64,000 nt of DNA, taken from Escherichia coli. Its GTDB lineage: Bacteria > Pseudomonadota > Gammaproteobacteria > Enterobacterales > Enterobacteriaceae. Below, in pieces: positions 56,344-62,300 of the stretch. Within the stretch, counting starts at the first letter, position 1; each line of letters starts with the position of its first letter. The DNA lies in assembly GCF_045037415.1 (NCBI RefSeq), contig NZ_CP173438.1; one strand, given 5' to 3'. The position numbers are program-made.

Positions 56344-59300
56344 TAACTCGGTGGCCAGTTTTTGTTGACCACTTCATACTGTCTGTGGAGTATTTGAATG
56401 TACCGCCGGATTGTTCAGGTGAGCTTTCCTTCTGTGCTGCCGACGATGAGGCAGCCAGAGCATTAGAGCCGAAAAGAAGGGATGATGCCATGACTGCTGT
56501 TGCTATAAAATGTTTCATATATTCTCCATCAGTTCTTCTGGGAATCTGTGGGCAGCATATAGCGCTCATACTATGCTGCTGTTTCAATATTAGCGGCAGA
56601 CGTCAGCCTTACCGCACTACTTATTGGATAAGAATATCAAAAGTGACCGCAAAGTCAATTTTATCACAACACAGAAGGCCACTATTTATGCCAGCAAATA
56701 TGAATCGTCCTCATCATGCACGAAAGACTCGTAGTTGCAGCCCGGAAAAAACTGCCAGGACACGACAGCAGATAGCCCGGGCAGCACTTGAGGAGTTCTC
56801 TGCACAAGGGTTCGCTCGCGCCAGCATCAGCAATATCAGCAAGCGCGCAGGAGTAGCTAAAGGCACGGTATATAACTACTTCCCGACAAAGGAATTATTG
56901 TTTGAAGCGGTTCTGAAAGAGTTCATTGCTACCGTCCGTACTGAACTGGAATCTTCCCCCCGCCGCAACGGGGAAACCGTAAAAGCCTATCTGTTGAGAG
57001 TGATGTTACCTGCCATCAGGAAAATTGACGACGCATCAACAGGCAGAGCCAGAATAGCCCACCTGGTTATGACAGAAGGGAGCCGGTTCCCGGTAATCGC
57101 TCAGGCTTATTTACGGGAAATACATCAGCCACTACAGCAAGCCATGACCCAACTGATTCAGGAGGCAGCATCAGCCGGAGAGTTAAAAGCAGAGCAACTG
57201 CTCTGCTTCCCCTGTTTATTGCTGGCTCCAAACTGGTTTGGCATGGTGTATAACGAAGTTCTGAACCCGGCAGCACCGGTCAGTACAGGCGATCTTTTTG
57301 AAGCCGGAATTGGTGCTTTTTTCCGATAGGCACATAACTGTCAGTATTATGACCATGCCGTCAGGAGGAGGTATACCAGTGATACCCTACCATGACCCGG
57401 TAACGTCTCCTGGCTGCCTTAAACCTGAAAGACCTGGCCCCACCACACTGCCGGTTACGCAGTCAAGATGTAGCAACCCTTGCATAAGGCTGTTTTGTGC
57501 AGAGGGCTACCGGAAAGATAATAACGTCACAGCCCGTATGCATCAGATAAAACAGTGTATTTTATCTGTCAGCAGTCACTGGAGCGGATTGTGGGGCGAG
57601 ATTCAGGTGCTGATACTGTAACGACTCTGCGCCGCTGCTGCGGTAAAAGCGGCTGCCACCAGGCACGGTTATCAGAGGAGGATGACCGTGTCCGCCCCTG
57701 GTGGTGATGAACTCTCCATCACAATCAATAATGCCGCCGGGTGGATGAAGCAGACAGGGATGGCAAGTCCCACCATCCCGGATAAAATGGGCTCTGGGCG
57801 CTCAGAAGACCTGTGTGTCAGGCAGGGGTGAGAACGGTGATGTTTTTTGTTGTCTGAAAGTCCAGCTCCAGCATTGTCTGCCAGCCTCAAGACTTCCGCT
57901 TTCTGCCCTTTCCGGCATTTTCTTCCGTTACCATCATTCTGTTAATTCAGAGGCGTAGTAGTAGTAAACGTAATACATATCCGGGAGGATGAAGTCATCT
58001 AATCCTGCTCCCCGAATATCATACAGCCATTCCTGAGTGTGACTGCACCATTTCCAATTACGCAGTCTGTCCTCATCACAAAAATGTTGCAAGCAGTGCG
58101 AAGTCACGTTCCGTATTCATGCCCTCTGCCAGATATTGAGCGGGGGAGAAATGTGTAAGCGTCAACAGAGCGCCGTATTGACACTTATTTATCGGTGAAA
58201 ACTACGTTCCATGGCAGCAGTTCGTCAACACGGTTGGAGGGCCATTCCGGCAGTACGCTCAGGATATGGCGCAGATACGCTTCTGGATCGATACCGTTCA
58301 ACCGACAGCTCCCGATTAGTCCGCACAGCAGAGCTCCGCGCTCGCCTCCATGATCGTTGCCGAAGAACATGTAGATGATATGACCTTTATATACTCACTA
58401 TAGCATTGGTGGGATATTCCAGAGGAGGTCATCATGCATTCGGAAAATATTGCGGCTTACGTCGGGCTGGATGTGCATAAAGAAACGTTGGCGGTTGCTA
58501 TTGCTGCACCTGAACGGCTTGGCGAAGTTCGTTATTATGGTACGATTAACAACGAAGCCCAGGCTGTACGTCGATTATTTCAGAAATTGCAGGGACTTTA
58601 CGGAAACATTCTTTCCTGCTATGAGGCTGGCCCCTGTGGTTTTGGGCTATATCATCAACTCACAGCGATGAATATAAAATGCCAGGTTATTGCCCCTTCC
58701 CGCATACCAAAATCACCGACAGACAGAATCAAAAATGATCATCGGGACGCAATTTCTCTCGCCAGGTTACTGCGGGCTGGAGAACTTACCCCTGTCTGGA
58801 TCCCTGACCTGACTCATGAAGCTATGCGGGATCTAATCAGAGCCCGTGCAGCAGCTAAACGAGACAGCAGAGTTGCCCGACAGCGAATTCTGAGCATGCT
58901 ATTGCGAACAGACAAACATTATGCAGGAAAGCACTGGACAGGAAAACATCGAACCTGGTTAGCTAATCAATCATTTAGTCAGCCATCTCAACAGATTGCT
59001 TTTCAACACTATTGTCAGAGTCTGGAGCAGATTGAAGATCGCATACTTCAACTCGACCAGGAAATATCTCGCCTGTTACCTGAGTGGTCTCTGTGCAATC
59101 TGGTCTGCCAGTTGCAGGCTCTTAAAGGTGTTGGTCAGCTAATTGCAATAACTCTGGTTGCTGAACTGGGTGATTTTTCGCGATTTTCCAATCCCAAACA
59201 GCTCATGGCTTTTCTGGGACTGGTGCCAGGTGAATATTCCAGTGGAAACAGTATTCGTCCCAGAGGAATAACAAAAGTTGGAAACAGCGAACTGAGACGT

Positions 59301-62300
59301 CTGCTTTACGAAGCCGCCTGGTCTTATCGTACACCTGCAAAAGTTGGGGCATGGCTTATATATTACCGACCGGACTCTGTAACACAATATTCCAAAGATA
59401 TTGCATGGAAAGCTCAACAACGATTGTGTTCTCGTTACCGAAGTCTGACAGCAAAAGGGAAAAAATCACAAGTAGCCATTACGGCGGTGGCTCGTGAGTT
59501 GACTGGATTTATGTGGGATATTGCACTTGCTGCCCAATCATCATTCAGTCAGCAGAAGCAAAATTAAACCCTGAAGCAGTCAGACACGGAATGAGTGATC
59601 CTCGTAAAAGAATTCAGGGAAGCCAGAATGCGCTAATACCTGCACGTAGAAAGAGGCCAGCTCACTGCGTAAATCGTCATGGGGCTAAAATCCCCGAATA
59701 AGAGTTTGTAAAATCCAAGATACAGTCTGACTGTTTCAGGTTCTTTAATCCGCGATATAACGAAGCTCCCGGAGCTGCGTAAGGTCTTTTTGGGCTTAAT
59801 ATTTGACAAAGGTCATAAGAATTCTTTTTCCCGAGACAGACGGCACGAAGCGCTCTTTCTGCTGTGTTATTGTCCGCCTCCGCCAGACCGTCATCACTGT
59901 AATAACAGAGGGCGTCCCACTGATTCAGGACATAGCTGAACGCTTCGCCCAGTCTGGATTTTTTCGACAACGTGCCATTCTTCTCCACCATCCATTCATG
60001 CAGCGACGTCAGTAACGCTTTGCTTCGCTGCTGCCTGGCTGCAAGACGTTCAGACTCCGGTAAGCCCCGTATTTCATCCTCAATGGCGTACAGTTCACTG
60101 ATGCGCTTCAGAGCTTCTTCTGCCGTCGTACTTTTGCTGCTGATGTATACATCGTGGATTTTTCGCCGGGCATGGGCCCAGCACGCAACTTCTGTCAGTG
60201 CACCACCTTCACGTTCGGCACTGAACAGCCGATCGTAACCGCTGAATGCATCCGCCTGCAGGATACCCCGGAAGGGACGAAGGTGTTGTACCGGATGTTT
60301 TCCCTGCCTGTCTGGTGAGTAGGCGAACCAGACCGCCGGTGGCTCTGATGAGCCCGCATTCCGGTCATCCCGGACATACGTCCAGATGCGTCCTGTTTTT
60401 GCCTTTTTTCTGCCCGGTGCCAGCACTTTTACTGGTATGTCGTCAGTGTGAACCTTGCGGGTGTTCATCACGTAACGGTACAGGGCATCATTCAGCGGAG
60501 TCATTAACTGGCAGCACGCGTCAACCCAGTTGGAGAGTAATGCACGGCTCAGTTCGGCACCCTGTCGGGCAAAGATTTCACTCTGACGATACAGTGGCAG
60601 GTGTTCGCAGTATTTTCCCGTTAACACGCGGGCAAGTAATCCGGAGCCCGCGATGCCGCGCTCTATCGGGCGGGACGGCGCTGGCGCTTCAACTATACAG
60701 TCACATTTTGTACAGGCTTTTTTTACCCGAACAGTGCGGATCACTTTCAGGGCGCTACTCACCAGTTCCAGCTGCTCAGCACTGACTTCACCCAGATAAT
60801 CCAGCTCACTGCCACACTCCGGGCAACAGCTTTCTTCAGACTCCAGACGGTGTATTTCACGGGGAAGGTGTGCCGGTAACGGACGACGATGGCGCGACTG
60901 TCGCAACTGGCGGGGAACCTGCGGATCGTCTTCCCACCCACTGTAACGATCGCTGTCCTGTCGGCGTTGATTCAGCAGGGCCTCAGCCTGTTCAACTTCA
61001 CGACGCAGTTTTTCAGAACGGGTACCGAACAGCATCCGGCGCAGTTTTTCTATCTGGGCCCTCAGATGTTCTGTTTCCCGCTCCTCCTCTTCGATCTTTT
61101 CTTCGGCACGTGCCAGTGCAGAGCGCAGGAAGGCCTCCGTCTCTTCAACCAGACTCAGTTGCTGATCTTTCTGACGGAGGGCTTCAGCCTGCTCAGAGAG
61201 TAGCCTTTCCAGCTCAGTGATACGAATGAGGTATTTCCGACTCATGACCGTTTTTATAATCCGGCCATGACATTTTTACAACATTGTCAGTGCATTAAGG
61301 CGGGATGTTTTGGGTTGACGCCAGTCCAGTTTATCGAGGAACATTGCCAGCTGCGAGCGGGTAATGGATACCTTACCGTCACGCACCGCAGGCCAGATAA
61401 ACTGGCCTTCCTCCAGACGTTTGGTGAACAGGCACAGACCATCAGCATCAGCCCACAGGATTTTAATCGTGTCACCCCGTCGGCCGCGAAAGATAAACAG
61501 GTGACCGGAGAAGGGGTTCTCATCCAGCACATGTTGTACCTGTTCACCCAGACCGTTGAAGGATTTACGCATATCAGTAACGCCGGCAACCAGCCAGATT
61601 CGAGTGTCTGATGGGAGCGAGATCATCGTCCTCTCCCGGTCAGTTCACGGATCAACACCGTGAGCAGCTCTGGTGACGGATTTTCCAGCGTCATGTTACC
61701 GTGGCGGAACTCAACTTTACAGGAACTGGCACTGACTGTGCTTTGTGAAGGAGTGGATAAAAGCGGAGTAAGAGCCGCCACAGGCTCTTTCTGCTCATCA
61801 GGCGTTATCTCAACAGGTAATAATTCAACGCCAGCGCCAGAAGAGGTTGTTACCGGAAGACGCCGCGATATACGCCCTTCGTTCTGCCAGAGCCTGAGCC
61901 ATTTGAACAGGAGGTTATCATTGATATCGTGTTCCCTGGCAATACGGGCAACAGAGGCTCCTGGTTGTGAAGCCAGTTTAACCATTTGAAGTTTAAACTC
62001 ATTTGAAAATGTTCTGCGGGGTTCTGCGGGGTTCTGCGGATAATATTTTCTGTTCCATAACAGGTGTCCACTAGTTGAAAAAGTGGGCACCTACGTTACC
62101 AATACTGGCTTAATGGCTACATACGGCGGTCAGTTTACGCTTACAGAAATGTAATAAACACGTCCTACAATTAACTGAAGAGCATGGTGACGGATGAAGG
62201 AAAAAGCAGGAGTGTGTGGTGCCTCACAGATTTCCGACATCATAGCTGTCAACGACGGATGAAAAGCGGCTCTTCCGCAACTTGGGTGGAAGAAAATGGA

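Follow-up and report, generated by a model that had tools for sequence, protein, structure and literature searches.

The stretch analyzed here (hereafter the window) comprises 64,000 nucleotides of Escherichia coli contig NZ_CP173438.1 (assembly GCF_045037415.1) and contains an insertion sequence (IS) element of the IS66 family whose transposase gene, tnpC, is interrupted by ISEc45, an element of the IS110 family, IS1111 group (coordinates in Table 1). It is very probable that the IS66-family element came first and that ISEc45 then entered by RNA-guided integration at a conserved motif of tnpC, i.e., at a site that was not hit by chance.

Regarding the order of events, the same IS66 copy is present with an uninterrupted tnpC on the chromosome of E. 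coli F11, where its neighbors are genes for a YybH-family protein and a TetR regulator on one side and an IS3 remnant on the other, and the identity to the window was 99.9% on both sides of the insert. Window positions 56374-58373 aligned with positions 1255-3254 of the F11 locus and 59820-63100 with 3254-6534, with one base in common; the insert accordingly measures 1447 bp and occupies 58374-59820 or equally 58373-59819, a single A being ambiguous. Excision of these 1447 bp restores the tnpC frame exactly (...CLGKKN-YMFFGND...) and places the insertion point between codons N475 and Y476. Because the F11 copy is uninterrupted at the same locus and because a shared 8-bp duplication surrounds the composite, the two tnpC parts are one gene, and the IS66-family element arrived first and ISEc45 second. 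The interruption is exact to the base in a gene that is contiguous elsewhere, and the call of a split gene is therefore not attributable to chance. A 3-bp AGA duplication at the ISEc45 junction was considered and rejected, as F11 lacks it and the tnpC frame would not survive it.

A first-pass annotation of this DNA had placed an IS110-family element, on the opposite strand, inside the tnpC of an IS66-family element, which was confirmed by open reading frames, domain searches and annotation. It had also proposed a single split tnpC, with IS66 preceding IS110, and here the F11 empty site and the common 8-bp duplication agree with it; the case in which the tnpC parts stem from different IS66 copies, which it had named as the alternative, is excluded by the F11 alignment together with the target duplication. 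Its limits for the IS66-family element (58155-62145) deviate by at most one base from the measured ends (58155 and 62144), and the junctions, for which it had pointed to alignment with intact elements, are now set by the uninterrupted F11 copy with a one-base ambiguity. The arrangement was thus rightly taken as a record of the order of events, whereas the site-specific, recurrent nature of the insertion had gone unnoticed.

The insert is named 'IS110-like element ISEc45' in E. coli genomes annotated with the Prokaryotic Genome Annotation Pipeline (PGAP). Its transposase is identical to WP_000555401.1 in CP051719 and matched PF01548 (DEDD_Tnp_IS110, E=8e-16), PF02371 (Transposase_20, E=7e-24) and NF033542, 'IS110 family RNA-guided transposase' (279 bits, cut-off 140); residues D13, E64, D102, D105 and S270-G271 were invariant or nearly so in the alignment of transposases (alignment A1). 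The hallmarks of the IS1111 group, according to Siddiquee et al. (PMC11187229), are a downstream non-coding region, subterminal inverted repeats and a GL-P motif. ISEc45 has 60 nt of non-coding sequence upstream of its gene and 253 nt downstream, i.e., a short left end like that of IS1111 elements; its subterminal repeats of 10 bp (IS1111 range 7-17 bp) are 100% complementary, at distances of 5 nt and 2-3 nt to the element ends, and GLVPGEYSSG fits the motif GL-P----S(T)G, whose columns were invariant in alignment A1. In the supplement of Durrant et al. (PMC11208160), ISEc45 is listed as 'RE, IS1111', its bridge RNA being predicted for the right end. The empty sites of F11 tnpC and of an hsdS gene described below, which are independent of each other, gave only the one-base ambiguity, i.e., no target duplication, and site-specific insertion of this kind is characteristic of the IS110 family. 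In the ISEc45 junctions compared, the base before the junction A always came from the target on the left and was always G on the right. An IS621-like CT dinucleotide core was not adopted, as the junctions permit a one-base overlap (A) only.

The occurrence of the site in E. coli was determined in 5426 complete genomes. The whole 4.15-kb nested arrangement was present in 269 of them, annotated as IS66 tnpA, tnpB and tnpC plus 'IS110-like element ISEc45 family transposase', and because of these 269 genomes the window is assigned to an extraintestinal-pathogenic-type E. coli island. ISEc45 was found at 80% of its length or more in 586 genomes and the uninterrupted target region (query: the two tnpC parts spliced) in 3239. 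Copies of ISEc45 numbered 2170 places in this E. coli set. Ten distinct contexts of the exact ISEc45 protein and six loci fetched individually were compared; 15 of these 16 contexts lay in an IS66-family tnpC or in remnants of one, at the same codon (K-N^Y/W/F-L-F, with ^ marking the insertion point) and in the same orientation, the ISEc45 gene being antisense to tnpC. The host genes belonged to at least three IS66 sequence variants, with the flanks ...GAACATGTA^ATTCTTTTTCC, ...GAACACGTA^ATTTTTCTTTCC and ...GAACATAAA^GTTTTTATTTCC. A widespread copy (L002/L006/L101-L103; labels of this form denote the loci compared) sits in an IS66 remnant between rikA and yaiO at the homologous codon (LGNKN^FMFFG), with flanks of the type CATAAA^GTTTTTAT.

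The sole site found outside IS66 was in hsdS, the specificity gene of a type I restriction system, in the NC101 lineage (...GCCAACATA^ATTCTTTTCATC; L003, NZ_CP072784, NC101-derived strain JA0266, 2499-3944). Uninterrupted hsdS alleles aligned over 380 bp to a 379-nt query lacking the junction A, hence the A is present once in the empty site. The insertion presumably inactivates that restriction-modification system. The label 'spontaneous mutant' had suggested transposition in the laboratory, which was rejected since, according to the publication on it, JA0266 arose from NC101 by nadA reversion and its reads were mapped to the genome of NC101; the insertion is treated as a natural feature of the NC101 lineage and as no proof of recent activity.

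Many ST95-type genomes (L007, L009 and L014, UTI89-type copies of this locus) have a tandem 9-bp duplication, GAACATGTA-GAACATGTA, directly before the left end of ISEc45, at a position corresponding to 58365-58373; neither the window nor the F11 empty site has this duplication. It explains most of the length difference (4161 versus 4151 bp) among nested copies and could be due to slippage between GA...GA or be a trace of recombinase activity.

Relatives of the ISEc45 transposase were gathered by protein search, contig look-ups and a scan of one genome per species. The tnpC site was shared by 11 related lineages with transposases 57-87% identical to that of ISEc45, from Salmonella (L015/L016), Vibrio (two, L020 and L021), the planctomycete Limnoglobus roseus (L022), metagenome-assembled genomes of Rhodobacteraceae (L023) and Nitrosomonas (L027), and metagenome contigs (L017-L019, L105-L111). 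All of them have kept the ends GATG(A/G)(T/G)ATGACC...GGTCATAAG, and all are flanked by homology to IS66 TnpC which stops at residue 475 and resumes at about 472-476, the translated flanks reading G-R-K-N^W/F/Y-L/M-F. Regarding 80 more distant relatives, 47-58% identical (regular-expression search and tblastn), only those with an identity of at least about 57% sit in IS66 tnpC, and those at or below 53% mostly have different ends and flanks. Many alphaproteobacterial relatives, 47-53% identical (L029, L030, L043, L045, L051, L053 and others), end in GGTCATGCG, and the flank beyond this end is conserved as gta(g/t)ccaacccgcg, which suggests that this subgroup has a different, also conserved, target.

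The 3' non-coding region of ISEc45 is predicted to encode a bridge RNA (also termed seekRNA). Its outer stem pairs 59570-59585 with 59725-59740 (fold and inverted-repeat search), and encloses an arm in which CCUC/GAGG and CAGG/CCUG delimit an internal loop (fold z=-2.7). In an alignment of seven elements, 18 of the 29 RNAalifold consensus pairs were compensatory. The inner stem of the loop, read directly from the sequences, also changes in a compensatory manner, with the forms CAGG/CCUG, UAGGU/ACCUG, UAAGU/ACUUG, CUGUG/CACAG, UGGGC/GCCCG and UAAGC/GCUUG across relatives. The fraction of paired cells on the consensus structure was 89%, compared with 75% in shuffles (0 of 500 as high) and at most 55% when the partners were slid by 1-3 columns; all five structure measures lay above 500 of 500 shuffles and above all slid controls. 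The invariant or frequent G-U pairs are compatible with the plus strand only.

Both putative guides (left and right target guides, LTG and RTG, as defined in PMC11208160) lie in this loop. The right-target guide, AAAAGAAUU, is exactly complementary to the right flank's top strand, A^ATTCTTTT, a 9-nt match found by k-mer comparison and independently by the inverted-repeat search. The left-target guide with the following GA has the same sequence as the top strand of the left junction, CA(C/T)GTA^GA, and hence its pairing partner would be the bottom strand. Both matches include the one ambiguous A, where they overlap, a geometry also reported for bridge RNAs and seekRNAs, and their order (top-strand match 5' of bottom-strand match) is that published for IS1111 seekRNAs. 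Left guides and left flanks were CACGUA and CATGTA or CACGTA in ISEc45, CAGGCA and CAGGAA in L015, CAACCA and TAACCA in L020, CAGCCA and GAGCCA in L021 and L022, CAGGUA and GAGGTA in L023, CAGCCA and TAGCCA in L027, UAGCCA and TAGCCA in L108, and CAACCA and CAACCA in L111. Right guides shift with their flanks as well (for example, CAAAAAUU with AGTTTTTG, CAAGAAUU with AATTCTTG, AAAAGAAUU with AATTCTTTT). When the guides of nine elements were compared with their own flanks, 111 of 135 positions were Watson-Crick matches, compared with 92.7 +/- 3.8 upon random reassignment (permutation fraction 5e-6, a value somewhat inflated in that the relatives are phylogenetically related and the test overstates their independence). 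Despite its lack of homology to tnpC, the hsdS site matched the guides at 13 of 14 positions, as did the tnpC site of the window; with strict pairing, 13 of 14 was attained nowhere else in the 64-kb window on either strand.

A second part of the RNA, putatively donor-binding, comprises AUCGUCA, the hairpin UGGGG-CUAAAAU-CCCCG and AUAAGAG. For AUCGUCA (59673-59679), pairing with the left-end sequence GATGAT would involve six of seven positions, and it follows left-end changes only partly; AUAAGAG (59698-59704) equals the right-end portion of the joined ends (ATAAG-A-G), and the hairpin and AUAAGAG are invariant across relatives, leaving little variation to test. The match of this part to ISEc45's own ends is suggestive only. 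Some E. coli variants (L101, L103, L104, L009, L010) have GATGGT or GATAAT as left end, not GATGAT; in these, one base 5' of the right-target guide differs (AAAAAGAAUU) and the donor-pairing AUCGUCA is unchanged.

Joining of the ends, predicted to read ...GGTCATAAG(A)GATGATATGACC... in a circular form, would bring together TTGACA (a perfect -35 sequence that is conserved in relatives), a 17-nt spacer and TGaTATGAC, and by analogy with the junction promoters reported on circular forms of ISEc11, ISEc21 and IS621 (PMC11187229, PMC11208160) the joined ends may form a promoter. A promoter and terminator scan of 58100-60000 predicted nothing in the integrated copy.

Taken together, the following course of events is proposed. 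An IS66-family element inserted first, creating the 8-bp duplication AGAAATGT. ISEc45 then integrated between the N475 and Y476 codons, within the conserved motif G-(K/R)-K-N-(W/Y/F)-(L/M)-F. One internal loop of its predicted structured RNA holds both putative guides, overlapping at the A of strand exchange; AAAAGAAUU would pair on the right side of the crossover with the top strand and CACGUA on the left side with the bottom strand, and a complex of recombinase and RNA would join a circular ISEc45 copy to the tnpC site without target duplication. The anatomy, the order of events, the recurrence of the site and the covariation within the RNA and between guides and flanks come from the sequences compared here; expression of the RNA, the circular intermediate, its promoter, catalysis and the loss of autonomy of the IS66 element are proposed on the model of published relatives.

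Several observations weigh against this course of events, in addition to the shared descent of the elements in the permutation test. A scan of 57500-62500 with Rfam 15 at E<=1 gave no match inside ISEc45 and no bridge-RNA family. When G-U wobble counts as pairing, a score of 13 or 14 of 14 is also reached by three sites of the window that are unoccupied, and the two short guides as defined may not be the whole specificity. For the flanks of the rikA-yaiO copy, agreement with the present guides is limited to 8 of 14 positions, or 11 if wobble is included, and the guides are identical in all E. coli ISEc45 copies compared, that copy included; this misfit implies either a high tolerance of mismatches or insertion by an older guide. 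The donor-binding half is only partly supported, with the relative L023 pairing poorly, and the proposed -10 sequence, TATGAC, lacks the final T of the consensus. Regarding the guide misfits together, either the recognized sequence is longer than modeled, or the system tolerates mismatches, or insertions that fall outside dispensable DNA are lost by selection.

Other explanations of the arrangement were weighed against RNA-guided integration. IS-rich islands gather nested insertions, as illustrated here by the IS3-family element at about 55129-56373 and the IS fragments at 62383-63800, and ISEc45 might lie in tnpC by accident, the arrangement being merely historical; however, the same codon and orientation recur in several E. 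coli IS66 variants and in the 11 related lineages, and there is both complementarity and covariation between guides and flanks, which makes mere accident highly improbable. That the tnpC parts come from two IS66 copies, merged by recombination or deletion around an IS110 element, has a negligible probability: another C-terminal fragment of an IS66 TnpC is present at 45170-45325, so that several IS66 copies have been present, but the 8-bp duplications flanking the composite are identical, F11 is uninterrupted at the same locus with both halves nearly identical to those of the window, and removal of the insert restores the frame.

The recurrence of the site might alternatively reflect the spread of the IS66::ISEc45 composite as a unit, trans-mobilized by an intact IS66 element or transferred horizontally. 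The inverted repeats, tnpA and tnpB of the composite are intact, and the same ISEc45-bearing IS66 variant occurs in several genomic contexts (L005, L008, L012, L013), yet such spread fails to account for different IS66 variants with different flanking bases, for the hsdS site and for distant taxa whose guides changed together with their flanks; as the explanation of the recurrence it is quite improbable. It is also unlikely that the site is specific and read by the recombinase protein or by other RNA segments, with the complementarity a by-product of sequence conservation. The poor fit of the rikA-yaiO site to the proposed guides would agree with this, as would the homology of the targets, from which cross-matching is expected (mean 10.0 of 15 for the guides of one element on the flanks of another); matches to an element's own flank nevertheless exceed this value, with a mean of 12.3 of 15, and the non-homologous hsdS site resembles tnpC little beyond the positions that match the guides. 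Moreover, the two segments face each other across a single internal loop supported by covariation, in the published IS1111 seekRNA order, and experiments have demonstrated guidance by RNA in five members of the family (PMC11187229) and in IS621 (PMC11208160).

If integration is guided by RNA as proposed, ISEc45 and its relatives would be parasites of IS66 elements, truncating TnpC, because the conserved stretch that they target belongs to a gene that is multicopy, horizontally mobile and dispensable. It is somewhat more speculative, and still rather probable, that the ISEc45 clade is an old, cross-phylum RNA-guided lineage and an obligate hyperparasite of IS66, whose guides track synonymous or near-synonymous codon variation in K-N-(W/Y/F)-L-F among the IS66 variants of each host. 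Each insertion would then disable the host IS and gain a safe harbor that is multicopy and horizontally mobile.

The nested arrangement is already annotated in public genomes, and the mechanism is not new, as its class is known and established for relatives: RNA binding and transposition have been shown for ISEc11, ISKpn4, ISPa11, ISPst6 and ISEc21 (PMC11187229) and for IS621 (PMC11208160). ISEc21, which targets codons of an IS3 transposase (PMC11187229), resembles ISEc45 in having a DEDD recombinase, an RNA matching both strands of a conserved stretch in the transposase gene of another IS family, a single insertion orientation and no target duplication; its non-coding region, however, lies upstream of tnp with the guide order reversed (IS110 type), whereas ISEc45 has a downstream non-coding region, 10-bp subterminal inverted repeats and IS66 tnpC as target. 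The ISEc45 transposase is approximately 15-25% identical to other family members in the identity matrix of PMC11187229. ISEc11, ISKpn4, ISPa11 and ISPst6 share with ISEc45 the downstream non-coding region, the subterminal inverted repeats, the GL-P----SG motif, the lack of a target duplication and a folded RNA in which the match to the top strand lies 5' of that to the bottom strand. The target of ISEc11 is a short chromosomal sequence and those of ISKpn4, ISPa11 and ISPst6 are other sequences, whereas ISEc45 targets an IS gene; the role of the RNA is experimental for these four elements and read from sequence for ISEc45. IS621 (Durrant et al. 2024, PMC11208160; Hiraizumi et al. 2024, PMC11208158) has a similar internal-loop architecture, a second RNA part that matches its own ends and a promoter on the circular form, for which the ISEc45 counterparts are putative. 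IS621 has its RNA upstream of the recombinase gene, in the left end, and uses CT as core, whereas in ISEc45 the RNA is located in the right end and the overlap is a single A; unlike in IS621, the donor-binding part of ISEc45 shows no clean internal loop in the consensus fold. Other IS1111-group elements are specialized on a non-coding terminal repeat of another mobile element, whereas the target of ISEc45 is a coding motif.

Targeting of IS66 tnpC by the ISEc45 clade, the guide assignments and the retuning of guides across taxa were not found described in the founding bridge RNA and seekRNA papers or in the searchable literature, ISfinder excluded. After ISEc21 in IS3, this would be the second clear case of an RNA-guided IS specialized on the transposase gene of another IS family. 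The recurrent combination of a truncated IS66 tnpC, an IS110 transposase and a transposase-domain fragment in hundreds of E. coli genomes would then represent one targeted event and not decay. A whole clade that keeps one codon as target while retuning its guides would constitute a natural series of reprogrammed guide-target pairs, and the nine guide/flank pairs, together with the hsdS and rikA-yaiO sites, offer hypotheses on mismatch tolerance for the engineering of IS1111-type bridge recombinases.

Table 1. Positions of the nested elements, their genes and the proposed RNA and promoter features in the window
Feature	Position	Strand	Basis
IS66-family element	58155-62144	-	Inverted repeats; tnpA/tnpB/tnpC families; annotation of identical DNA in E. 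coli genomes
IS66 8-bp target-site duplication AGAAATGT, identical copies	left 58147-58154, right 62145-62152		
IS66 tnpA	61623-62063	-	HTH_Tnp_1, PF01527; NF047595; F11 annotation
IS66 tnpB	61276-61626	-	PF05717, E=4e-36; NF033819
tnpC N-terminal part, codons 1-475, ending ...RAVCLGKKN	59821-61245	-	LZ_Tnp_IS66, zf-IS66, DDE_Tnp_IS66
tnpC C-terminal part, codons 476-537 and stop	58185-58373	-	DDE_Tnp_IS66_C (PF13817), E=6e-17
ISEc45 (IS110 family, IS1111 group)	58374-59820	+	Empty sites in F11 tnpC and hsdS; ends conserved across copies
ISEc45 transposase/recombinase gene, 377 aa, intact	58434-59567	+	DEDD RuvC-like and Transposase_20 domains
Left subterminal inverted repeat TATGACCTTT	58379-58388 (partner 59808-59817)		Inverted-repeat search
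Right subterminal inverted repeat AAAGGTCATA	59808-59817		Inverted-repeat search
Predicted bridge RNA / seekRNA, 3' non-coding region	59570-59740	+	Fold, inverted repeats, covariation
Putative right-target guide AAAAGAAUU	59606-59614	+	5' side of target-binding internal loop
Putative left-target guide CACGUA, then GA	59643-59650	+	3' side of the same loop
Putative donor-binding part (AUCGUCA, hairpin, AUAAGAG)	59673-59704	+	Direct reading
Candidate -35 box TTGACA of circle-junction promoter	59803-59808	+	TTGACA/TTGAAA/TGGACA in relatives
Candidate extended -10 TGaTATGAC	58376-58384	+	Direct reading; analogy with ISEc11/ISEc21/IS621 junction promoters

The IS66-family element measures 3990 bp with the nested ISEc45 and 2543 bp without it; near-identical copies carry the PGAP label IS682-like. 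Its assignment follows from tnpA, tnpB and tnpC in succession, a DDE_Tnp_IS66 transposase, terminal inverted repeats and an 8-bp duplication. The terminal repeats (GTAAGCGTCAACAGAGCGCCGTAT / GTAAGCGTAAACTGACCGCCGTAT) are imperfect, with 19 of 24 bases the same, and both start with GTAAGCG, at 58155 and 62144. IS682-like IS66 elements of E. coli have the same gene order, GTAAGCG... repeats and 8-bp duplication, and the window copy differs from them in its interrupted tnpC. Matches to PF13007, PF13005, PF03050 and PF13817 and to the NCBIfam model NF033517 agree with this assignment. In a tblastn comparison of the intact F11 TnpC with the window, residues 1-475 corresponded to 61245-59821 with 100% identity and residues 472-537 to 58385-58188. 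Past codon 475 the frame continues for 47 foreign codons of ISEc45 to a stop at 59677, and the C-terminal part reads YMFFGNDHGGERG...ELLPWNVVFTDK. Residues 476-537 (62 residues including the PF13817 domain) are thereby cut off, with the inverted repeats, tnpA and tnpB left intact. As the first-pass annotation held, the interrupted copy may reasonably be regarded as non-autonomous, judging only by the loss of these 62 C-terminal residues with their conserved domain; with TnpC ending at 475 of 537 residues it probably depends on TnpC supplied in trans.

In the vicinity, an IS3-family element of approximately 1.25 kb at 55129-56373 (OrfA 55163-55501, OrfB 55528-56346), which is IS911-like by its OrfA sequence, lies between the YybH-family and TetR regulator genes and is missing from the otherwise collinear F11 locus. 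The only Rfam match in 57500-62500 was a sub-threshold match to AfaR at 62066-62164 on the plus strand (44.8 bits versus a gathering score of 100, E=1.4e-5), which covers the tnpA-proximal IS66 end and its inverted repeat and probably reflects IS66-like sequence in the Rfam seed and not a real AfaR gene. The second, diverged TnpC C-terminal fragment at 45170-45325 (plus strand; residues 481-532, 60% identical) starts a few codons past the position of the ISEc45 target, and the sequence upstream of it is unlike an ISEc45 end. Beyond the IS66-family element, IS debris extends over 62383-63825, with IS3-family OrfB/OrfA remnants at 62383-63246 (ISEc16-like in the F11 annotation) and a transposase-like open reading frame at 63340-63792.

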